A DNA stretch of 64,000 nt from Candidatus Woesearchaeota archaeon (GTDB lineage Archaea; Nanobdellota; Nanobdellia; SCGC-AAA011-G17; UBA489), in contig CAYFOE010000003.1 of NCBI GenBank assembly GCA_964344635.1, forward strand, positions 24,389 through 88,388, written 5' to 3'. The stretch's first letter is position 1. The number at the start of each line of letters is the position of its first letter. Shown here piece after piece: positions 1-8,508 of the stretch. The notes beneath the pieces were generated by a model that ran no database searches, was not told the DNA's origin, and saw only the letters and a list, made by a program, of their open reading frames with translations. The translations under genes were made by a program, and so were the position numbers.

Positions 1-153
1 AGGCATTAAGTACATGCTACCGTCTGTAGCGTCAGCCATCAAACTAAGTCTTCCATAGTGTTTTCTTCCACCAAACCTACCAAAGTCTTCCCACTTGATA
101 GTATCTGTTGTTTCTATTTCAAATTCGTAATTTTTTTCTGGTTCCATTTTTGG
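1..153 (-). CDS. hypothetical protein, N-terminal fragment (gene continues beyond the window start)
   Basis: Reverse strand reads ATG at 151-153 then MEPEKNYEFEIETTDTIKWEDFGRFGGRKHYGRLSLMADATDGSMYLMP, open to the window edge. A TATA-like ctttataaagc lies about 35 bp upstream. Confidence 0.3.
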
Positions 154-285
154 TTTGCCTTTGATTTTTATGGATATCATCCTTTATAAAGCTTTTCTTT
201 AGTAGTTACTATTGAATGACAACACCAATGAAAATATTTAATAACCAGTTAGATACTAAAAAAACAGAAAGCAGAGATAGCAAAG

Positions 286-915
286 ATGAACCAAAGAGAC
301 TTTTACGCAATAACAGAAGGACCGAATTTTATTGGAGGAAGGGAATCCGTGGTCTACAAGCTCCCAAAACACCTTGAACGAGGACTTGGCCCTAGCGTAG
401 TAAAACTATTCCTACCCTTCGTAGAACATAAAAATGGAGTAAGAGATATTAGAACTCCTGACGACTTAGAGCACCTAGCCGCTAACGAATTCTGCATCGG
501 AATGGGCTTAGAAGACCTAGGAATTAATGTTCCAAGAATGCACACAGTCGTAGATTTTCCATCTCCAGGAAAAGAACACCCTCACTACAACGAAGGTAGA
601 AGGATTCCAGGAGTAATCATGCAAGAACTAACCGGCATGAGAGAATTCAGAGAACTAAGCTGGAACGAAAAAGGAAAAGCACTAGACAGTTTTGCATTAG
701 GCGTTGTAAAAGCAATAGGCGGAGGATTTAGACCCTTTGACACATACCACCTAAGAAATGCAATGTATGATGTCGAAGGCGAAGCTCACTTTTTTGACTT
801 CTGCCAATGGTCCGAAGGAGAAATGAAGGCTGGAGAAGGAATGAAATACCTCCAAGAAGAATTTGTTTTACCAAAAGATACATGGGAAAAGAAAGGACTA
901 GAACTAGCTATTTAG
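286..915 (+). CDS. hypothetical cytoplasmic protein (209 aa)
   Basis: Long ORF with protein-like composition. No motif I can assign with confidence. Confidence 0.45.
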   Translation: MNQRDFYAITEGPNFIGGRESVVYKLPKHLERGLGPSVVKLFLPFVEHKNGVRDIRTPDDLEHLAANEFCIGMGLEDLGINVPRMHTVVDFPSPGKEHPHYNEGRRIPGVIMQELTGMREFRELSWNEKGKALDSFALGVVKAIGGGFRPFDTYHLRNAMYDVEGEAHFFDFCQWSEGEMKAGEGMKYLQEEFVLPKDTWEKKGLELAI

Positions 916-1549
916 AGCTCATCTCTTGCGATTTAGGCTGTTTAGCCTCATTATTCTGAAAATAAGACTTACCCTTCTCAGTAATTGCAATATAAGTCTG
1001 CTTACCCTTTCTTAATTTGTGAATCAACCTCGCATCAACCAAGATCCCAATATACTCAGAAACAGTAGACCTCACTTTATCATACGTTTTCCCAGGATAC
1101 AAGTCCATAGCAAGAGTTTTTAGAGCAGTCCACTCTTGACCAGACTCCCTTTGGAAAGCACCCAATCTAAAAAATATAGCTTTTTGCGTTTCCGTTAAAT
1201 CATCCAAAGGACTCCTAGTCATTTTTGGAGGAAGATTTGACTCTTCATCATCATAATATAATTTTTCTTTAGAAGTTTCTCTCTTTTTGGGTTGAGCCGG
1301 AGTAGAATTTTCTCTTTCTGCTAGGTAGGAAATGACTTGACTGATCTCTTCAATTCTAGATTCTAGGTTTTGGAATCTTTCTCCGTACTCTTCATCCCTC
1401 GTTTTGAAAAAAGAAAGCCAATCTCTGATGACTTTTATGTCTGACTTTATCCTTGTGAACGAATTTTTTAGGTTTTCAGAGATTTGGTTAATGTGACTAA
1501 CAGCTTCGTTTACTTCTGACCTCTTTTTTCTTGAGAATAAAAAACCCAT
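908..1549 (-). CDS. coiled-coil protein with C-terminal winged-helix (MarR/ArsR-like) DNA-binding domain; paralog of 2197-2841
   Basis: N-terminal heptad-rich region (ENLKNSFTRIKSDIKVIRD...LESRIEEISQVISYL). C-terminal block AIFFRLGAFQRESGQEWTALKTLAMDL...KLRKGKQTYIAITEKG has the shape of a wHTH. TATA tttataaata lies about 25 bp upstream on its strand. Confidence 0.5.
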   Translation of the reverse strand: MGFLFSRKKRSEVNEAVSHINQISENLKNSFTRIKSDIKVIRDWLSFFKTRDEEYGERFQNLESRIEEISQVISYLAERENSTPAQPKKRETSKEKLYYDDEESNLPPKMTRSPLDDLTETQKAIFFRLGAFQRESGQEWTALKTLAMDLYPGKTYDKVRSTVSEYIGILVDARLIHKLRKGKQTYIAITEKGKSYFQNNEAKQPKSQEMSSK

Positions 1550-1559
1550 ACAACCTCTA

Positions 1560-1800
1560 TGTCGACGTTATTTATAAAGGTAACTCAAGTGTCGGGGACG
1601 TCCCTGTACAGACGTAGACGGGTGTAGACGTGTCTTAGACGGTTCGTCGACGCGTTAATCGACGCAATACCGACGTTATTTATAAGGAAAATGGACTTTT
1701 TCCGACGGAATCGACGCATCTTTCGAAGAATCATCAAAACATACAAGAAGTGAGAATTTAGTCATCGACGCGTAAAAAAATTGAATCGACGCGTAAAAAA
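1560..1800. promoter_or_regulatory. GC-rich island in non-coding DNA with about five (A/T)TCGACGC motifs, three TAGACG(G/T) motifs and a duplicated 17-mer CGACGTTATTTATAA(A)GG (a TATA-box-containing promoter module)
   Basis: Read directly. TCGACGC at about 1647, 1657, 1708, 1766, 1786. ATCGACGCGTAAAAAAA occurs twice, 20 bp apart. cgacgttatttataaagg at 1562 and cgacgttatttataagg at 1672. Composition contrasts with the AT-rich surroundings. Confidence 0.4.
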
Positions 1801-1894
1801 AGCGTCTATTCTTTCGGTTAGGCAATAGTAAGGTTTAGAATACGGCCCTAAAGGCATAGGATAAATCATAAGAATTACTGTGAAAAGGGCTTAA

Positions 1895-2180
1895 TTTTGC
1901 AAAAGTGAGAGTAATAGGGAAACTATAACAAAAATAATGAAAAAGATAGGTAATATGCACCTGAGAATAGGGGTTTTAGAGTACTATTAATACAGGAGAT
2001 TAGAGGTAGATATGCCCTCAAAACCAGAAAAGTGAGAGTTAGATAGGAGTTTTTAATGAAAATATGCTATTCTGGTGCAAAAAGAGATATTGGAGAAGTA
2101 AGGAGAACTGTAAGAAACAATAAATGTTATGAGAAAAAGCTCAAAAAATGCTCAGAATCAAAAAAGTGAGAGTTAAATTA
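1895..2180. repeat. three copies of AAAGTGAGAGT(A/T)A about 126-134 bp apart, each followed about 14-18 nt later by TAATGAAA
   Basis: Copies at about 1902, 2030 and 2164. Each is followed by a tiny ATG-initiated ORF (17, 36 and 5 codons). Related AAAAGTGAG also occurs at 2401 and 3503. Confidence 0.4.
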
Positions 2181-2196
2181 ACCAAATTTAATGAAA

Positions 2197-2841
2197 TTAT
2201 TCAAATAAGGTCCTTTGGTCAGAAGGATTCTGTCTCAAACGGATTAATTTATTCAAGAGATTAAGGTCGTGAAAGTCTTCTTTTATCATAAGTGAGACTT
2301 TACCATTAAAATGGCGTGCTTTTTTGATTGGAAGGCCTTTAGAGATAAGACGATTAGAAGTGCCTCTAATGGTAGTCTCCGTTAAATTAAGGTGGTTTGC
2401 CAAAAGTGAGTAATTAACGTCTCCAACCTGCGATTCAAGCTCTAGAATGGCCATAAACACCGAGAATTCCCTGTCTGTAAGGGTTTTGAACTGTTTCTCA
2501 AAGTCCATTTCTAGGACTTTTAGCGTGTTTTTCGGAATATTTTGTTGTCTTTCGTTGATGGTTGTTGACTGTTGATTGTTGACTGTTGACTGTTGATGAT
2601 TGTTGATGACCCCATCATTTCCGATGGAATCCTTTTTAAAAGAAGTTAAAATATCTTTTATTTCGCCTAAATTTGATTTTAATTCATCTATTCTAGAATT
2701 TAAGGCTAAAATATCCTCTTTATTGTCTTTTGAACTGTTTTTTAATTCAGTTACGCTTAATTTTAGGTCTGAAATGTCATTTTTCGCATTAGAAAAAGAA
2801 TTCCTTATTTTTTCCCTAAAAAGCGCTTTATTCTCAGCCAT
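2197..2841 (-). CDS. coiled-coil protein with C-terminal winged-helix DNA-binding domain; contains a QQSTVNN repeat linker
   Basis: N-terminal coiled coil (DISDLKLSVTELKNS...LNSRIDELKSNLGEIKDIL). Linker NNHQQSTVNNQQSTTINERQQ is encoded by the heptanucleotide repeats. C-terminal FSVFMAILELESQVGDVNYSLLANHLNLTETTIRGTSNRLISKGL is HTH-like. Same architecture as 908-1549. Confidence 0.55.
   Translation of the reverse strand: MAENKALFREKIRNSFSNAKNDISDLKLSVTELKNSSKDNKEDILALNSRIDELKSNLGEIKDILTSFKKDSIGNDGVINNHQQSTVNNQQSTTINERQQNIPKNTLKVLEMDFEKQFKTLTDREFSVFMAILELESQVGDVNYSLLANHLNLTETTIRGTSNRLISKGLPIKKARHFNGKVSLMIKEDFHDLNLLNKLIRLRQNPSDQRTLFE
2553..2610. repeat. heptanucleotide tandem repeat (TGTTGAY)n, about 6 units, inside the coding sequence of 2197-2841
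   Basis: tgttgac tgttgat tgttgac tgttgac tgttgat gat tgttgat gac, read directly. On the minus strand three units make 21 nt and encode QQSTVNN. Confidence 0.75.
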
Positions 2842-2885
2842 TTTCTTAAGGATTTAGAGGGCCTTACAATTATTTAAGACTTACC

Positions 2886-2933
2886 TGTTTGGCATTGTTT
2901 GGTATTGTTGTTCATTGTTGATGATTGTTGATG
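2886..2933. repeat. degenerate copy of the TGTTGAY heptanucleotide repeat in the 100-bp spacer between two minus-strand genes
   Basis: cattgtttggtattgttgttcattgttgatgattgttgatgaa. A 25-codon minus-strand ORF here reads MGNKGVHQQSSTMNNNTKQCQTGKS, resembling the GNDGVINNHQQST segment of the neighbouring gene. Confidence 0.55.
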
Positions 2934-2940
2934 AACCCCT

Positions 2941-3465
2941 TTATTTCCCATGGAACTCTTTAGAAATCTTATAGTACAAGCCCAGAAAAGCCTCTTTTTG
3001 AGGGTTAAGGCCTGAGGAAAGTAATTTCTTCGCCAAATCCTGCCCAACATCCTTGTTGGTGCCTTCAGGAGGCCTATAACAGATAATTCGACGCAAAGTC
3101 TTGTTTGCAACAAAGCCCTCATTGACCTGTAAGCATAGTTTTTGGCCAGTTTTAATGCTTTTCACATTATAATTATTGAGATTCACCATTAAATCGCCCT
3201 TAGAATAGTGCTGATCAACCTTTGAGAAACCATTTGCCAAGAGCAACTCATCAAACATAGCCCTCACAGTCTCTTTTGGACTCTGTTGAGCATTGTTGAC
3301 TGTTGATTGTTGATGATTGTTTAGCTCAATAACACGACCCAAATAAGCAGAAACCTTCTGTTTAGGATGCTTTTTAGACCTTTTACGGCGTTTCGTAAGA
3401 ACCAAATAAGCATACTTCCTAACATCTCCAGAAACATTCTTTCTTGTCTTAGTGCGTATATACAT
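2941..3465 (-). CDS. hypothetical protein with very basic N-terminus and a QQSTVNN repeat segment
   Basis: MYIRTKTRKNVSGDVRKYAYLVLTKRRKRSKKHPKQK is followed by LNNHQQSTVNNAQQS, encoded by the third heptanucleotide repeat. No family assigned. Confidence 0.45.
   Translation of the reverse strand: MYIRTKTRKNVSGDVRKYAYLVLTKRRKRSKKHPKQKVSAYLGRVIELNNHQQSTVNNAQQSPKETVRAMFDELLLANGFSKVDQHYSKGDLMVNLNNYNVKSIKTGQKLCLQVNEGFVANKTLRRIICYRPPEGTNKDVGQDLAKKLLSSGLNPQKEAFLGLYYKISKEFHGK
3284..3322. repeat. third TGTTGAY heptanucleotide repeat tract (about 3-4 units) inside the coding sequence of 2941-3465
   Basis: ctgttgagcattgttgactgttgattgttgatgattgttt, read directly. Confidence 0.65.
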
Positions 3466-3521
3466 ACATAGTGGGCACTACAAAGAAATATATAAAACTA
3501 TTCAAAAAAGTGAGGATAAGG

Positions 3522-3974
3522 CTATGAAGCCTTAGGTTTAGATTCTTCCTTTGACTCCCCTTGAGCCTTAGCCTTAAGAGAAATCTTAGGCATAGCAATA
3601 TGTGGAGGGAGACCAACTTGTTGAGATAAAGAAAGAGCCATAACCCCACACTTAGCAAAAACATAATTTACTAACTGGCCTGAGAAAGAAGGTTCAATCT
3701 TCTTTTCCTTGTCCCAATCTTCTAAAATCTTATCTTTAGCATCCTTACTTGTTAAATAATGAATATAACCAACAATCTCAGTCTTAGCAATATTAGGCAA
3801 GTAATCCACCGAATAAGTGAATTTGAACTTCAAAAGAGCCTGATTATTCATACCCTCAGGAGTAGGATGCTCAGCAATATCTGTAAATTTAATGCCATTC
3901 TTAGCTTCTATTTTACCCTTCAAAGGGCCAGTCTTGTCAACCGATATTTTATCTAGTGTTAAGTTGATTATCAT
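3522..3974 (-). CDS. hypothetical protein (150 aa) with Lys/Glu-rich C-terminal tail
   Basis: ORF downstream of lonB on the same strand. No recognisable motif. Confidence 0.4.
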   Translation of the reverse strand: MIINLTLDKISVDKTGPLKGKIEAKNGIKFTDIAEHPTPEGMNNQALLKFKFTYSVDYLPNIAKTEIVGYIHYLTSKDAKDKILEDWDKEKKIEPSFSGQLVNYVFAKCGVMALSLSQQVGLPPHIAMPKISLKAKAQGESKEESKPKAS

Positions 3975-4021
3975 GTTGGTTGAAATAATCTTAAGAGATT
4001 ATAAAACTTACGATTAAGAAA

Positions 4022-5899
4022 TTAGATACTTTTGAACTTCCTCAAAATACTTTCCTTACCCTTCCACTCCAAAGCATGCTCCAAAACCTCCTTCAGAGTT
4101 TCAGCATGAATAATCTTAACCTTTCTCTTATTACTAGGACTCAAAATCACATCCTGAGCATTAGCCTTAGGAATAATTACAGTTTTAATACCAGCATGAA
4201 TTGCTGCCTCAATCTTTTGAGTAACCCCACCAACCGCTAAAACTTCCCCCCGAACAGACAGAGAACCAGTCATTGCAACATTCTGCTTTATAGGAATCTG
4301 TTTCAAAGCCGAAATAATAGCCGTTGCAACAGCAATCGAAGCAGAATCTCCTTCCACACCACCAGACTCAGAAGCAGTCTGCAAAAACTGAATAAAAATA
4401 TCATACTTCTCCTTAATATCCTCACCAAAATATTTCAAAATAATAGCCGAAACATTCTGTACCGCTTCCTTCGCTATCTCACCAAGCTTACCAGTCGCAA
4501 TAAAATCAGACCTCTTCCCACCAGGCGTAACCTCCGACTCAATAGGCAAAACCAAACCCGAAAGATAAGAATCAGAACCCATCACAGCAAGACCATTAAC
4601 ACGCCCAACCCTCGACCCACTAGTAACAATAACCTCATACTTCTTTTTATTCTCAATATACTTATCAACAATCTGTTGCTCCAAAGTTCTTGCAAAAGAC
4701 TTTGCCTTAATCACATGATCAGGCTCAACAAACTTAGAATTTTGTTCCAATGCCAAATCACCAGCAGCCCTCACCAAACCACCAAGCTCCCTCAAACGCA
4801 AAGTAAGCTTCTTAGAAGTACCAGAACGAATCCTAGACTCCTGAATAATCTCCTCCACAGCAGCCTTAGTAAAATGAGGAATCTTCTTATCCTTATTAAC
4901 TTCCTGAGCTACAAAAATAGCAATCCGCCTTTGATTCTCAAGAGTATCCTCCATCGTATGATTCATATTAATCTCATAACCATAACCCCTAATCCTAGAT
5001 CTCAACGCAGGATTCATCTTCTTAATCGTATCAGGAGTACCAGCCGCAACCAAAATAAAATCAGTAGGCACTTCCTCTGAACGCACCATCGCTCCAGAAG
5101 ACCTTTCTGACTGTCCAGTGATAGGATATTTCCTTTCCTGCATACAAGTAAGAATCTCTTGTTGTGCAACAGGATCCATATTCCCAATCTCATCAATAAA
5201 TAACACACCCTTGTTTGCCTTATGGATCATACCTGGCACCAACCGCTCATAAGCAGGCGTACCCAAACCACCAGATTGAAGAGGATCATGAAGAACATCA
5301 CCCAACAAAGCTCCCGCATGAGAACCAGTAGCATCAATAAAAGGCGCCTTTACCTTCTTTGAATTATCAATAAGAATCTTTGGAACCTTAGTTCCCTTCC
5401 TTGCCTTTTTATTAAGATTAAGGAACAAAATAAATATTGCAATAAACATCATAGAAGAAATCAACGACGCAGCCGCCATAATATCACCATACTGTTTCCT
5501 AACCCACCACGGAGAAAAAATAGAAATAGCAATCAAAATATAGAAAAAAATCATTTGACCCTTGAACTGTTTCATAGACTCAATCTTAGATTGTTGGACC
5601 TGCAACTTACCCTTACCTTTAGACATAACCCTAATCAAAGGATTATGCTCATCAGAAGGATTATCAAAAGACAAAACATCATCCAAATCACCATTAGGAA
5701 TTAATTCGGCCAAAGCCTGTCCCGTCAAAGATTTACCAGTACCCGGCTCACCAATCAACAAAACATTTCTCCTCTGCCTAGCAGCTTTCTTAATAATAGT
5801 AACAGCCTCTTCCTGGCCAATAATCTGATCAACAACAGAATCTTTAATAGAGATATCTTTAGTCGTTTTGAAATCTTTGAGAGTTTTGGAACTAACCAT
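4022..5899 (-). CDS. lonB: archaeal membrane-bound Lon protease (LonB): AAA+ domain with a transmembrane insertion plus S16 protease domain
   Basis: Walker [13 protein letters not shown]. Two hydrophobic helices are inserted in the ATPase domain ([16 protein letters not shown]...[11 protein letters not shown]). Walker B LFIDEIG. Protease domain has Ser-Lys dyad context [26 protein letters not shown]. Confidence 0.9.
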
Positions 5900-5924
5900 T
5901 TTAGATATGTAGAATGCTGAAAGA

Positions 5925-6188
5925 CTAAATTATGTCTTCTTCAGATACAACAACAAAGTCACCAATCGCGATTACAGATGAATAAGGAATTAACAAACTG
6001 TTATTTTGATCTCTCTCAAGATCCATCCCCTCTGTATAAGTTGTCGGATTCTTTAATATGATCTGCATTAATTCACCAGTTCTAACTTCAAAAGTAATGT
6101 TTCCAACTTCCCCAAACCTTTTACCAGTTTTAGTTACAACAGTCTTACCTAATAACTGCTTAGAATAGTTTTTTTCTTCCTCTGTCAT
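5925..6188 (-). CDS. PRC-barrel domain protein
   Basis: About 87 aa with [34 protein letters not shown], typical PRC-barrel shape. Confidence 0.5.
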
Positions 6189-6257
6189 TTTAGGTAATGT
6201 TAACCCTATATGGTATATAAAGCTTTTTGTGTGGTTTTTAAGTTGTAATAAAATTTA

Positions 6258-6884
6258 TCAATCTGAGACTAATTTATTGATAAACTCTGAAGGAAAAATA
6301 GAAAGCAGAGATATAGCCTTGATAGGAGGCTTTATTGAAACATCATTATTCTTGTAAGAATCCAAGAAAACAGGAAGCCTTTTTTGGTTAGGTAGATTCT
6401 GTAAGACATCTGAAACCGCTAAAGAAAATGCCATATCAACTTTATCTTGGTCAACATCATTTAGTAAATCCAAGATCTCTGACTTCTCAAAAGAAATATT
6501 TTCCGACAGAGTGATATTATCTGAAAGCAGGTTAGGAAATGAATCATTCGTGAATGTGAACACCTTGAAAAAACCTTGATCTGAGGAATTTTGATAATAA
6601 GTGTTTAGATCACCAGATTCAATGAAAAAAGTATCTGAATCTGAAAAATTAATTATCATAGTCGATTCTATGTTGTTATCTACCTTATAGAAGAATGCCG
6701 ATTGAGATGTTTCAAGATTTGAAAGACTTTTAGCATCAGAAATTATCAGAATAGTAGTCAATAATATGAATCCAAAGATCAACAATGAAAATATGAATAG
6801 AGTTTTGAGTATTTTTTTAACAACAAAAAACAAAATTAATAGAACAATTATTGAAACAATTGCAATTGTTGTAAGTATCTCCAT
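6258..6884 (-). CDS. hypothetical membrane-anchored protein (two N-terminal TM helices, extracytoplasmic Asn/Ser/Asp-rich domain)
   Basis: MEILTTIAIVSIIVLLILFFVV...LFIFSLLIFGFILLTTILII followed by a polar domain. Confidence 0.4.
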   Translation of the reverse strand: MEILTTIAIVSIIVLLILFFVVKKILKTLFIFSLLIFGFILLTTILIISDAKSLSNLETSQSAFFYKVDNNIESTMIINFSDSDTFFIESGDLNTYYQNSSDQGFFKVFTFTNDSFPNLLSDNITLSENISFEKSEILDLLNDVDQDKVDMAFSLAVSDVLQNLPNQKRLPVFLDSYKNNDVSIKPPIKAISLLSIFPSEFINKLVSD

Positions 6885-6959
6885 TGTTTAAACCTTGAAT
6901 TATTGATATAAATAGGTTGTTAATTCAAGATAAGTAAAAAATAATTGGGTAAACTAAAG

Positions 6960-6984
6960 ACCCCACACCAACATTTCGTATGGA
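6960..6984 (-). promoter_or_regulatory. origin recognition box (ORB), inverted orientation
   Basis: Reverse complement reads TCCAtacGAAAtgttggtgtGGGGt. This fits the archaeal ORB pattern TCCA-N3-GAAA-N9-GGGG. Confidence 0.6.
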
Positions 6985-7039
6985 AAAAAATATTTCGGAA
7001 AAAAACGTAAAACATACGAGTTACACTGTTTAAAGTTAA

Positions 7040-7200
7040 AATTAAAGAATTTTTATAAATTTTTTATTTTTTTATATTTTATTTATAAATTTTTTTATTA
7101 TTTATTATTTATTATTTAATTTATTTTTTTTATTATATATTTTTCAATTATTTATTTTTAGAATGCTGAAATATTTTTGGTTTTTTGATTTATTTTTTTA
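7040..7200. repeat. AT-rich duplex unwinding element with (TTTAT)n-like microsatellite between the two ORBs
   Basis: tttattatttattatttattatttaatttatttttttt and similar text, essentially devoid of G/C. Read directly. Confidence 0.6.
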
Positions 7201-7210
7201 TAAAAGAATA

Positions 7211-7236
7211 CTCCAGTGGAAACTATGGTGTGGGAG
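7211..7236 (+). promoter_or_regulatory. origin recognition box (ORB)
   Basis: cTCCAGTGGAAACtatggtgtGGGag. The TCCAGTGGAAAC core matches the canonical mini-ORB. It lies 55 bp upstream of the cdc6 start. Confidence 0.65.
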
Positions 7237-7290
7237 TTTCATATGATAGTATAGATATGCTTAAATAAAACATGAAATATTTTTGTAGTT

Positions 7291-8508
7291 ATGGCCGACG
7301 TTAAAGACTTTCTACGAGATTACGCAAAAAAAGAGGGTTTATTCAAAAATAAAAAAGTTCTACAATCAAATTACACACCAGAAAAAGTACCATACAGAGA
7401 AGACCAAATAAACATGTTAGCAGGCATACTCGCACCTTCCCTGCGTATGGAGCGGCCCAGCAACATATTTCTCTACGGAAAAACAGGCACAGGAAAGACA
7501 CTAGCAATAAAACATGTAATAGACCAAATAGACGAAGTTGCAAAAGAAAGCAAACTCAATCTAAAAATAGTCTACCTAAATTGTAAACTAAAAAGAGTTG
7601 CAGACACAGAATACAGACTAATAGCACAAATCTCAAGAGAACTAGGACAAGAAATACCACCAACAGGATTACCAACCGACGAAGTTTACAAAATATTCGT
7701 AAGACTAGTCGAAAAAGAAAAAATGCTACTTCTCTTAGTCTTAGACGAAATAGACGAAATCGTAAAAAACACAGGAGACAAAATATTATACAATCTAACA
7801 AGACTAAATGCTGAACTAGAAAACAGCGAAATCTCAATCGTAGGCGTAAGCAACGATCTAATGTTCATCGACCAAGTAGATCCAAGAGTTAAAAGCAGCC
7901 TAAGTGAAGAAGAACTAGTCTTTCCACCATACAACGCAATACAACTACAAAAAATATTGAAAGAAAGATCCCAAATCTCATTCGGAACAGAAGTAATTGG
8001 CGAAGGAGTCATTGAAAAATGTGCAGCATACGCAGCAAAAGAACACGGAGATGCAAGAAGAGCCTTAGAACTACTAAGAGTTGCAGGAGAACTAGCAGAA
8101 AGAAACAACTCAGATAAAATAGAAATCAAATTCATAGACCAAGCCGAAGAAAAAATAGAAAGAGACAGAGTCGTAGACATCGTATCAACACAACCAAAAC
8201 AATTCAAAATCACCCTATACAGTATCTTACAATTCACAAGTTTAGACAGTTCTAAAACGAATTCCCAAGGAATATACACCGGAGATATATATGAACTCTA
8301 CAAAGAGAATTGCATTAAATGCGGAACCAAACCCTTAACCCAAAGAAGGATTGGCGACATAATTGCCGAACTAGACATGCTCGGAATAATCAATGCAAGA
8401 GTCATAAGCAAAGGCCGATACGGCAGAACACGGAGTATCACACTAGGAATTCCTGAGAACATAGTGAAAAAAATACATGTTATGTTACAGGAAGGTCTAG
8501 GTATATGA
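7291..8508 (+). CDS. cdc6: Orc1/Cdc6 replication initiator
   Basis: Walker A LYGKTGTGKT. Walker B LLLVLDEIDE. C-terminal winged helix. Located next to the ORB/DUE origin as in Pyrococcus-type origins. Confidence 0.92.
   Translation: MADVKDFLRDYAKKEGLFKNKKVLQSNYTPEKVPYREDQINMLAGILAPSLRMERPSNIFLYGKTGTGKTLAIKHVIDQIDEVAKESKLNLKIVYLNCKLKRVADTEYRLIAQISRELGQEIPPTGLPTDEVYKIFVRLVEKEKMLLLLVLDEIDEIVKNTGDKILYNLTRLNAELENSEISIVGVSNDLMFIDQVDPRVKSSLSEEELVFPPYNAIQLQKILKERSQISFGTEVIGEGVIEKCAAYAAKEHGDARRALELLRVAGELAERNNSDKIEIKFIDQAEEKIERDRVVDIVSTQPKQFKITLYSILQFTSLDSSKTNSQGIYTGDIYELYKENCIKCGTKPLTQRRIGDIIAELDMLGIINARVISKGRYGRTRSITLGIPENIVKKIHVMLQEGLGI

Follow-up and report, generated by a model that had tools for sequence, protein, structure and literature searches.

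In bacteria, sites for initiator and partition proteins can lie inside genes, as with datA and the DnaA-box clusters of E. coli and the parS site within spo0J of B. subtilis. In the archaeon Haloarcula hispanica, a region rich in origin recognition boxes (ORBs) but outside the origin, oriC2D, negatively controls oriC2, probably by titrating Cdc6E, and datA is cited in the same work (PMC3936714). Origin-associated archaeal DNA-binding proteins other than Orc are also known, namely WhiP, which has tandem winged helices, defines a real origin (oriC3 of Sulfolobus) and gives a ChIP signal that peaks inside the whiP ORF (PMC3607249), and UBP of the UBP/ucm system, a nucleoid-associated protein of 111 aa (PMC12141716). 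Here we describe a block of three small genes of DNA-binding type (P1, P2 and P3), approximately 4 kb from the replication origin in a 64 kb stretch of a chromosome of the DPANN archaeon Woesearchaeota (hereafter the window). As in oriC2D, ORBs lie outside the unwinding region and near a cdc6-linked origin. In contrast to the 11 boxes of oriC2D there are two here (one in more distant lineages), arranged as direct repeats, and these lie in DNA coding for a protein linker and over a stop codon, each being followed by lineage-specific tandem repeats. The presence of ORBs in the coding DNA of regulators suggests a previously undescribed link between replication initiation and P1, P2 and P3.

A conserved gene block beside oriC and cdc6

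The three ORFs proposed in the initial annotation, all on the minus strand, were recovered at 908-1549 (P1), 2197-2841 (P2) and 2941-3465 (P3), together with the long non-coding stretch between P2 and P1, which measured 647 bp. Synteny next to cdc6 and oriC was found in 12 GTDB loci, eight metagenome loci and five distant loci. The order Cdc6, oriC, PRC barrel, LonB, P150, P3, P2, long spacer, P1 was kept from Cdc6 to P1 in all 12 GTDB loci carrying P1 and, with small changes, in distant relatives, and the locus was always approximately 5 kb from oriC, with a PRC-barrel protein and a XerA-like recombinase close by. All three proteins are conserved and belong to large families, P1 with 377 cluster representatives, P2 with 78 proteins and P3 with 203. 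The view that the block is not housekeeping DNA but a variable regulatory cassette was contradicted by these data, the genes being syntenic beside oriC and cdc6 across the Woesearchaeota. A conserved, origin-proximal chromosome-maintenance locus is the best explanation of the region as a whole, one which we hold with middling confidence.

The canonical oriC (6885-7290) lies directly upstream of cdc6 (7291-8508) and contains a DNA unwinding element (7040-7159) whose GC content is 1.7% and which lies between inverted ORBs at 6959-6984 (minus strand) and 7212-7236 (plus strand), i.e. inverted copies around an unwinding element beside cdc6. This cdc6 is the one Orc1/Cdc6 gene visible within the window, and further copies may be present in the rest of the genome. 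We infer an origin-proximal module in which P1 would bind an iteron array and Orc1/Cdc6 would bind the intragenic ORBs, an assignment of binding partners, read from the sequence, that we consider to have an even chance of being correct.

Coiled-coil winged-helix proteins and the iteron array upstream of P1

P1 (213 aa) comprises an N-terminal MGFLF..KK peptide, a heptad coiled coil (residues ~18-80), a disordered linker, an ArsR/TubR-like winged helix (114-194) and a basic tail, whilst P2 (214 aa) comprises a heptad coiled coil (2-70), a linker (72-105) encoded by an ORB and tandem repeats, and a MarR-like winged helix (104-186). AF2 models gave a helix (6-81), a disordered stretch (83-113) and a winged helix (114-194, pLDDT >90) for P1, and a helix (2-70), a disordered stretch (72-105, pLDDT <50) and a winged helix (104-186, pLDDT ~88-92) for P2. 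Heptad a and d positions were hydrophobic in 83% (P1) and 74% (P2) of cases, compared with 11-13% at other positions, and none of 2000 shuffles reached the observed periodicity. The architecture initially proposed for both proteins, an N-terminal coiled coil joined by a linker to a C-terminal winged helix of MarR/ArsR type, was therefore upheld by AF2, Foldseek and heptad statistics, with the winged helix of P2 nearest to MarR-type folds (MarR and AbfR at E = 6e-4) and that of P1 nearest to ArsR, RosR, TubR and AspA-type folds (ArsR/RosR at E = 3e-3 to 1e-2). For both proteins, nevertheless, no Pfam family reached its curated cut-off (best scores 12-18 bits against cut-offs of 22-27), and all NCBIfam matches were likewise below cut-off, including a weak one to Sso10a. 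The description of the two as paralogous held for the N-terminal helix, with a BLASTP E of 5e-4 and an hhalign alignment of 60 columns (21-80) at 88% probability and E = 3e-6, but not for the winged helices, which differ and which hhalign left unaligned when full-length proteins were compared. In the preferred explanation, P1 and P2 are coiled-coil winged-helix DNA-binding proteins, presumably dimeric, with a common N-terminal helix module and different DNA-binding domains. Their C-terminal fold is that of MarR/ArsR regulators and of the Sso10a-type chromatin proteins, which also combine a winged helix with a coiled coil; in P1 and P2, however, dimerisation is predicted to occur through a separate N-terminal coiled coil of 60-75 residues followed by a disordered linker of 30 residues.

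Thirteen repeats with a CGTC core, matching (A/C)CGTC(T/G)A(C/T)GA, make up an iteron array at 1562-1795 (minus strand); all have the same orientation, and six or seven of them are in tandem at 10-12-bp spacing within 1614-1675 (TRF period 11). A putative P1 TATA box, TTTATAAA (1571-1578, minus strand, ~26 nt before the ATG), was read from the sequence, is kept in orthologous loci and would act in the P1 promoter; a second TTATAAATAACGTCG copy lies at 1671-1685 (minus strand), and a second TATA-like box at 1679-1685. The TCGACGC motif, in which the spacer had been said to be rich, proved to be part of this array upstream of the P1 TATA box, with five of the seven copies in the window falling within 1647-1792, against an expectation of 1.1 copies over all 64 kb. 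A tandem array with a period of 10-12 bp was found directly upstream of the P1 TATA box in every genome examined. An exact 21-nt iteron pair matched eight metagenome loci, all at the P1/P2/P3 block, with seven matches located 75-110 bp ahead of the P1 orthologue and one on a contig that stops before P1. Across all loci, the array went strictly together with P1. The 130 bp nearest to P1, the iteron core, was conserved as well as P1 coding DNA, and in distant lineages the iteron sequence drifts whilst period and position are kept. The TCGACGC-type repeats are thus very likely to be protein-binding sites tied to P1, judging from this linkage, and P1 itself most likely binds the one-sided ~11-bp array abutting its own TATA box. 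Such binding would make P1 autoregulated and assemble several dimers into a nucleoprotein complex approximately 5 kb from oriC.

In ParR/parC (R1), TubR/tubC and AspA (pNOB8), too, a small dimeric DNA-binding protein is encoded just downstream of a one-orientation array of 10-12-bp repeats, and the array near P1 could be read as an origin-proximal centromere with P1 as its binder, held at the membrane or by a partner through its N-terminal peptide, resembling in outline these systems as well as RacA or Noc. Such a segregation or tethering role, which is compatible with P1 autoregulation, is consistent with the one-sided tandem iterons upstream of the P1 gene, with the constant position of the locus near oriC, PRC-barrel and XerA-like genes, with the occurrence of TubR and AspA among the structural and profile matches of the P1 winged helix, although weakly, and with the conservation of the N-terminal aromatic/basic motif (MGF[WL]FF.KK) in 142 of 181 P1 family members. 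We nonetheless consider it unlikely. Pfam searches of the called genes within 7-10 kb found no ParA, ParM or TubZ-type NTPase at any locus, the window contains only this one array, the partition-protein matches were no better than those to generic ArsR/MarR repressors, and a membrane role of the P1 N-terminus follows from composition alone. The locus further differs from the ParR, TubR and AspA systems in being chromosomal without a motor NTPase gene nearby, and the long coiled coil and N-terminal aromatic/basic peptide of P1 are absent from all three proteins.

The P2-P1 spacer and the phased CTCACTT array

The second motif in which the spacer had been reported to be rich, AAAGTGAGAGT, corresponds to six CTCACTT(T/C)T motifs in a phased array (1748-2410, minus strand; 1748-54, 1903-09, 2030-36, 2164-70, 2290-96 and 2404-10), with intervals of 114-155 bp. 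Two of the motifs, those at 2290-96 and 2404-10, are inside P2. Exact copies of AAAGTGAGAGT number three (at 1902, 2029 and 2163), and the count at one mismatch was not significant within the 64-kb window alone; across 13 genomes, the core CTCACTT occurred at 5.9 per kb in the P2-P1 spacer compared with 0.16 per kb elsewhere, which bore out the enrichment. The array is not accounted for by P1 on iterons and Orc1/Cdc6 on ORBs.

The model put forward with the initial annotation, which makes the TCGACGC and AAAGTGAGAGT motifs of a variable, non-housekeeping cassette the targets of two paralogous regulators, anticipated the protein architecture, the enrichment of both motifs and the homology of the N-terminal helices. 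It is improbable in that form. The block was conserved and syntenic in every relative examined, the winged-helix domains of P1 and P2 lack detectable paralogy, and the ORBs are left out of account; moreover, of the two proteins named as candidates for binding these motifs, P1 is tied to the TCGACGC repeats but nothing links P2 to AAAGTGAGAGT or its CTCACTT core.

Origin recognition boxes within P2 and P3

In P2 and in P3 alike, the repeat-encoded segment is a canonical ORB (TCCAnnGGAAATnnnGGGGT) followed by short tandem repeats. ORB-A, TTCCATCGGAAATGATGGGGT (2609-2629, minus strand), lies in the linker of P2 (codons 72-78, S-I-G-N-D-G-V), and directly 3' of it, at 2554-2608 (minus strand), are tandem 7- and 10-nt repeats of CAACA(A/G) type that encode NNHQQSTVNNQQSTT. 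ORB-B, TTCCATGGGAAATAAAGGGGT (2935-2955, minus strand), runs over the 3' end of the P3 ORF, overlapping its final codons and stop codon, and is ~60-85 nt upstream of a TATA-like box of P2 (2870-2877); the tandem 10-nt repeats 3' of it (2886-2934, minus strand) end ~9 nt from this box. With up to three mismatches allowed, these were the only two matches to the 21-mer ORB in the window, compared with 0.01 expected. Both boxes match the published archaeal consensus, CTTCCAGTGGAAACGAAAGGGGT / GTTCCAGTGGAAATGG-AGGGGTA (PMC4153887, Table 2), as well as the oriC ORBs of the same genome: the dyad core TCCA-N2-GGAAA is present in ORB-A (TCCATCGGAAA) and ORB-B (TCCATGGGAAA), and the G-string follows 3-4 nt past the core (GGAAAT-GAT-GGGGT and GGAAAT-AAA-GGGGT), so that dyad, spacing and GGGGT string all agree.

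Canonical ORBs overlain by genes for winged-helix proteins, next to a repeat-rich spacer, could point to a second replication origin with P2 and/or P1 as origin-specific factors akin to WhiP, whose binding inside its own ORF provides a precedent and parallels the cis elements inside P2. This is decidedly improbable. ORB-A and ORB-B share the orientation of the left ORB of oriC and, with 326 bp between them and the unwinding element at a distance of 4.1-4.4 kb, form direct repeats rather than an inverted pair around an AT-rich core; GC content is 27-43% throughout 1500-3000, i.e. without an unwinding element, compared with 1.7% at 7040-7159; and the textbook oriC is 4 kb away beside cdc6. Furthermore, P1 and P2 each contain one winged helix and lack an AAA+ domain, and neither WhiP nor UBP is a sequence relative of either. 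That the spacer, long, conserved, non-coding and with the second TATA-like box noted above, encodes a structured non-coding RNA is very improbable, given that an Rfam search of 1-8000 gave no match at E up to 1, that RNAalifold found zero consensus pairs in six genomes and that conservation is limited to short motifs and absent from the DNA between them.

All 24 distinct loci examined carry the P2 copy of the ORB with no more than one mismatch, and ORB-B is present in eight of 12 GTDB loci. The peptide encoded by the ORB occurs in 72 of 74 full-length P2-family members, yet the ORB codons GGA-AAT and GGG-GT are invariant, whereas the most conserved P2 peptide, LTDREFSVF, varies freely at synonymous sites. 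In the loci L008, L009 and L022 the P2 box is translated in another frame, giving PQEIKGS in place of SIGNDGV, and P3 uses a third frame for its box. Since synonymous sites are frozen and the reading frame differs in one lineage, selection acts on the DNA. As far as the sequence indicates, the segment is thus a DNA-level ORB with repeats and not a protein feature, an element that had escaped the initial annotation. That S-x-G-N-x-G-V / NNHQQSST is instead a functional P2 peptide motif, shared by 69 of the 78 family members and only coincidentally ORB-like, is scarcely credible in view of these frozen sites and three frames, of variable residues that fall precisely where the ORB consensus has an N, of the predicted disorder of the stretch (pLDDT <50) and of a second copy that crosses a stop codon into non-coding DNA. 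The unit of the post-ORB repeats differs between lineages, and repeat type showed no clean covariation with the P2 recognition helix. Retention by selection of a replication or segregation cis site in origin-near coding DNA is reminiscent of datA and of parS in spo0J. The domain of life, the initiator and the site are different, and here the element is confined to a disordered linker and its frame varies by lineage.

Under the preferred module, the two boxes are candidate Orc1/Cdc6 sites, one within P2 linker-coding DNA and the other at the P3 stop codon upstream of the P2 promoter. Bound Orc1/Cdc6 would couple P2 expression to initiator status, by acting at the promoter and as an intragenic roadblock, and the occupied ORBs could also draw off initiator locally; with two boxes, against 11 in oriC2D, such a sink would be weak. 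More speculatively, and with a rather low likelihood, P3, P2 and P1 with the intragenic ORBs, iterons and phased CTCACTT motifs may form a previously undescribed DPANN origin-proximal organiser, in which Orc1/Cdc6, bound within the P2 ORF and at the P2 promoter, would gate the production of coiled-coil winged-helix proteins that assemble on the adjacent arrays, P1 perhaps being tethered to the membrane by its N-terminal peptide. If so, it would couple initiation to origin positioning, chromosome segregation or cell division in organisms with no recognisable partition system at this locus.

The remaining protein, P3 (174 aa), consists of a basic N-terminal region of 45 residues, with 16 K+R against one D+E and the conserved motif MYIRTKxRKN..YAYLV..PKQKV..YLGRV, and a C-terminal domain without a known family. 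Its basic N-terminus and repeat-encoded stretch were both confirmed: a third repeat tract lies inside P3 at 3292-3321, where 7-nt tandem repeats (3292-3314) encode the stretch NNHQQSTVNN.

The oriC region and a conserved gene block

Both the ORF map and the Pfam matches indicated that the window is archaeal chromosome, and the intergenic DNA directly upstream of cdc6 (6885-7290) is predicted to be a textbook archaeal oriC. It holds a 120-bp stretch at 1.7% GC (7040-7159), flanked by two mutually inverted origin recognition boxes (ORBs) for Orc1/Cdc6, the left one on the minus strand (6959-6984, TCCATACGAAATGTTGGTGTGGGGT) and the right one on the plus strand (7212-7236, TCCAGTGGAAACTATGGTGTGGGAG). 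The Orc1/Cdc6 gene itself (7291-8508) is followed by the PolD genes, one for each subunit (small and large), whilst on the other side of oriC lie genes for an 87-aa PRC-barrel protein (5925-6188; PF05239, E 2.7e-8) and a membrane-type LonB (4022-5899), then P150 (3522-3974, minus strand), which encodes a conserved 150-aa protein matching no Pfam or NCBIfam family and stands before P3 in most loci examined. P3 (2941-3465), P2 (2197-2841) and, after a 647-bp non-coding spacer, P1 (908-1549) complete the block, and the ORF map confirmed all three on the minus strand; Pfam and NCBIfam matches for P1, P2, P3 and their neighbours all fell below the cut-offs.

The initial annotation had regarded P1-P3 as a variable regulatory cassette, a view contradicted by the conservation of the block. 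The order PRC barrel, LonB, P150, P3, P2, spacer, P1 was constant in all 12 GTDB species representatives with P1, with a spacer of 440-700 bp, and on every contig long enough to show it the PRC-barrel gene was immediately preceded by Cdc6 and oriC. Among distant relatives, P2 led to similar arrangements in L018 and L019, and P1 to others in L028 and L029, the long gap in L028 being placed between P3 and P2 instead. In the most distant locus, L017, P2 lies near cdc6 and a P1-like gene is encoded on the other strand, with no P3 or LonB called nearby. Close homologues of P1 numbered 33, and homologues of P2 and P3 78 and 203 respectively, those bearing names being from Candidatus Woesearchaeota or Nanoarchaeota MAGs; a P1 profile run against 1.84 billion cluster representatives matched 377 of them (E ≤1e-3), almost all full-length (180-230 aa). 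PRC-barrel proteins are implicated in archaeal cell division, and the gene lay between oriC and LonB, or adjoined oriC where LonB was absent, in every locus whose contig extends there.

Origin recognition boxes in P2 and P3

Two further boxes fitting the published ORB consensus (CTTCCAGTGGAAACGAAAGGGGT in Archaea, GTTCCAGTGGAAATGG-AGGGGTA in Methanomassiliicoccales; PMC4153887, Table 2) were present on the coding strand, one spanning codons 72-78 of P2 (2609-2629, TTCCATCGGAAATGATGGGGT) and the other the last codons and stop codon of P3 (2935-2955, TTCCATGGGAAATAAAGGGGT). At up to 3 mismatches these were the sole matches in 64 kb, against 0.01 expected, and TCCAnnGGAAAYnnnGG.GT is common to them and this genome's oriC ORBs. 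Each points the same way as oriC's left ORB, its TCCA end facing the unwinding element 4.1 or 4.4 kb away. The P2 box was found with at most one mismatch in 24 of 24 distinct loci examined, including those whose P2 proteins are only about 35% identical, and the corresponding peptide is encoded in 72 of the 74 full-length P2 family members, whilst of the 12 GTDB loci 8 have the box at the end of P3 as well, separated from the P2 box by 326-350 bp.

Codon usage and reading frame make it close to certain that selection on the P2 box acts on the DNA and not on the peptide. Its GGA-AAT and GGG-GT are invariant, whereas the synonymous sites of LTDREFSVF, the most conserved P2 peptide, are free to vary, and the residues of the box-encoded peptide that do vary fall where the ORB consensus has N. 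In three loci (L008, L009 and L022) the P2 box is read in another frame, as P-Q-E-I-K-G-S, and the P3 copy uses the third frame and supplies the stop codon. Within P2 the stretch is predicted to be disordered linker (pLDDT <50). Orc1 is likely to bind at both extra boxes.

After each extra ORB come 2-6 short tandem repeats, CAACAAT-type 7- and 10-mers in the window and CACGCAACAA in L010, CCGAACAATG in L011, CCAGACAC in L028 and ATTCATTC in L029. Within a genome the repeats are identical in type at both ORB copies and recur upstream of the P2 promoter, those after the upstream ORB stopping about 9 nt short of a TATA-like box (2870-2877), itself 33 nt ahead of the P2 ATG; TATA boxes here and below were identified by eye. 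The NNHQQSST 'linker' arises because these repeats yield Q/N/S/T in whichever of the three frames they are read. Two features first noted in P3 were likewise confirmed, namely a repeat-encoded stretch (NNHQQSTVNN, from a tandem 7-nt repeat) and a basic N-terminus, with 16 K+R vs 1 D+E in the first 45 residues. Comparison of post-ORB repeat type with the P2 recognition helix gave no clean covariation pattern. Inside P2, positions 2563-2596 form a near-perfect 7-nt tandem repeat (TGTTGAC x4.9) with all three frames open throughout, and the lineage of L008, L009 and L022 passes through the adjacent ORB in a different frame, compensated by a 1-nt indel; frame changes through slippage, or phase variation, are conceivable at this repeat.

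The P1 and P2 proteins and their repeat arrays

AF2 models obtained with family alignments bore out the proposed coiled coil, linker and winged helix in both proteins, with helix, disordered stretch and winged helix at residues 6-81, 83-113 and 114-194 (pLDDT >90 for the winged helix) in P1, and at 2-70, 72-105 and 104-186 in P2. Hydrophobic residues occupy 83% (P1) and 74% (P2) of heptad a/d positions vs 11-13% elsewhere, values matched by 0 of 2000 shuffles. The further suggestion that the two are paralogous held for the N-terminal helix only (hhalign, 60 columns, 88% probability), where both carry an SFxR(I/V)KxDI motif; the winged helices did not align. Foldseek placed the P1 winged helix nearest to ArsR, RosR, TubR, AspA and ORC-type folds (E about 3e-3 to 3e-2) and that of P2 nearest to MarR-family regulators (E 6e-4). 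Profile searches of the PDB returned coiled-coil noise, a weak AspA match (E 0.16) for P1, weak HTH matches (E 7e-4) for P2 and no meaningful match for P3.

The TCGACGC motif reported earlier was upheld, with 5 of the 7 window copies in 1647-1792 vs 1.1 expected for the whole window. In the 250 bp before the P1 ATG there are 13 CGTC-core repeats (iterons) in a single orientation on the coding strand, six or seven of them in tandem at 10-12-bp spacing (TRF period 11; typical stretch ACGAACCGTCTAAGACACGTCTACACCCGTCTAC), and the array ends at the P1 TATA box (TTTATAAA, 1571-1578), which precedes the ATG by about 26 nt. A second TTATAAATAACGTCG copy is found 110 bp upstream in close relatives, in which the P1-proximal 130 bp is as well conserved as P1 coding DNA (0.72-0.85 vs 0.73-0.78) and the distal spacer less so (about 0.6). 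An exact 21-nt iteron pair matched 8 metagenome loci, every one at the P1-P2-P3 block and, in 7 of the 8, 75-110 bp upstream of the P1 orthologue, the eighth contig stopping before P1. In distant lineages the unit differs (GCGTTAGCAAA in L018, AAAACGTTTTC in L028, ACTAACGCGTT in L029) and a 10-12-bp tandem array still stands just upstream of the P1 TATA box. Such linkage is the hallmark of an operator or centromere-like site that is cognate to, and co-evolves with, the adjacent DNA-binding protein, and we infer that P1 binds the array; covariation of iteron sequence with the P1 recognition helix among distant orthologues was uninformative.

The second motif reported earlier, AAAGTGAGAGT, was present in three exact copies (1902, 2029 and 2163). 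On the coding strand it reads CTCACTT(T/C)T, of which there were 47 copies, in a single orientation, in the P2-P1 spacers of 13 genomes, at a density of 5.9 per kb vs 0.16 per kb elsewhere in those loci. In the window this strand-specific array (minus strand, 1748-2410 and 3508-3514; roughly 125-bp phasing) begins in the 3′ half of P2 and continues through the spacer; modal spacing is 114-136 bp, and motif positions align across the 13 genomes whilst the intervening DNA is divergent. CTCACTTTT was rejected as a general terminator, with only 6 exact copies in 64 kb, five of them in 1.9-3.5 kb.

A possible control circuit, its alternatives and neighbouring genes

We give roughly even odds to the best-supported reading, a composite arrangement in which P1 acts on the iterons and Orc1/Cdc6 acts on the extra ORBs to control P2. 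P1, bound as dimers to the one-face iterons of its own promoter, would autoregulate and possibly build a larger nucleoprotein complex. Orc1/Cdc6 on the two extra ORBs, through a promoter-proximal box and an intragenic roadblock, would link P2 transcription, and possibly initiator availability, to replication status, although this regulatory outcome is speculative. There are precedents in Haloarcula hispanica, where the ORB-rich oriC2D exerts negative control on oriC2 (PMC3936714), and in WhiP, whose ChIP signal peaks inside the whiP ORF (PMC3607249). P2 and P3 would be the obvious candidates to bind the post-ORB repeats and the CTCACTT units.

A centromere-like or membrane-tether complex, which is compatible with the composite arrangement, seems rather unlikely: the iteron array is parC/tubC-like, lies near the origin and accompanies a P1 N-terminus (M-G/V-F-W/L-F-F-(K/G)-K-K, first 9 codons) that is conserved in 142 of 181 family members and by composition looks like a membrane-targeting or partner-docking peptide, but no motor NTPase was found in the neighbourhood. 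We hold it highly improbable that the ORB/spacer region is a second replication origin, an idea rejected since an AT-rich unwinding element is missing and the ORBs are direct repeats. A non-coding RNA in the spacer was dropped and is essentially excluded, with no Rfam match (E up to 1) over 1-8000 and zero consensus pairs from RNAalifold for the distal spacer of six genomes. Lastly, S-x-G-N-x-G-V as a functional peptide motif was rejected on the codon and reading-frame evidence, leaving that explanation of the ORB peptide with practically no probability.

ORBs, iteron operators and winged-helix regulators each have known counterparts. In the literature searched, we know of no canonical ORB described as kept by selection within the DNA that encodes a disordered linker in a conserved gene, of no such intragenic ORB combined with two uncharacterised coiled-coil winged-helix families, and of no phased motif array adjoining the oriC of a DPANN lineage; to our knowledge, almost nothing is known of replication-initiation control or chromosome segregation in DPANN. 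The region offers concrete, testable parts for DPANN, relevant to archaeal replication and chromosome biology: a well-defined oriC, two extra canonical initiator boxes kept by selection in coding DNA across the whole lineage, and two large uncharacterised coiled-coil winged-helix families, P1 and P2, each with its own repeat array. It also presents a clear dual-use sequence, a DNA element tolerated by the protein within a disordered linker, with the lesson for genome annotation that the 'low-complexity Q/N/S/T linker' of these proteins is a by-product of that element. If Orc1/Cdc6 does bind the extra ORBs, the locus would be a conserved non-haloarchaeal case of initiator titration or of gene control coupled to the initiator, and a major uncultured group would gain candidate proteins for organising its origin.

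Among the neighbouring genes, a 209-aa ORF (286-915, plus strand) is convergent with P1, overlaps its 3′ end by 8 nt and resembles, by eye, a small kinase-like protein; it had no family match and is conserved in relatives at only 30-40%. In L019 (412-4178) LonB is apparently split into a Mg_chelatase-like N-terminal part and a Lon_C C-terminal part, with a 350-aa ORF and a small RHH gene inserted between them. Most loci also encode a XerA-like tyrosine recombinase (Phage_integrase plus SAM-like N-terminal domain) a few kb past P1 (L001 16143-16982, L029 8469-9293, L017 9570-10388, L019 9451-10305), and in L028 (7587-8399) this gene comes directly after P1.
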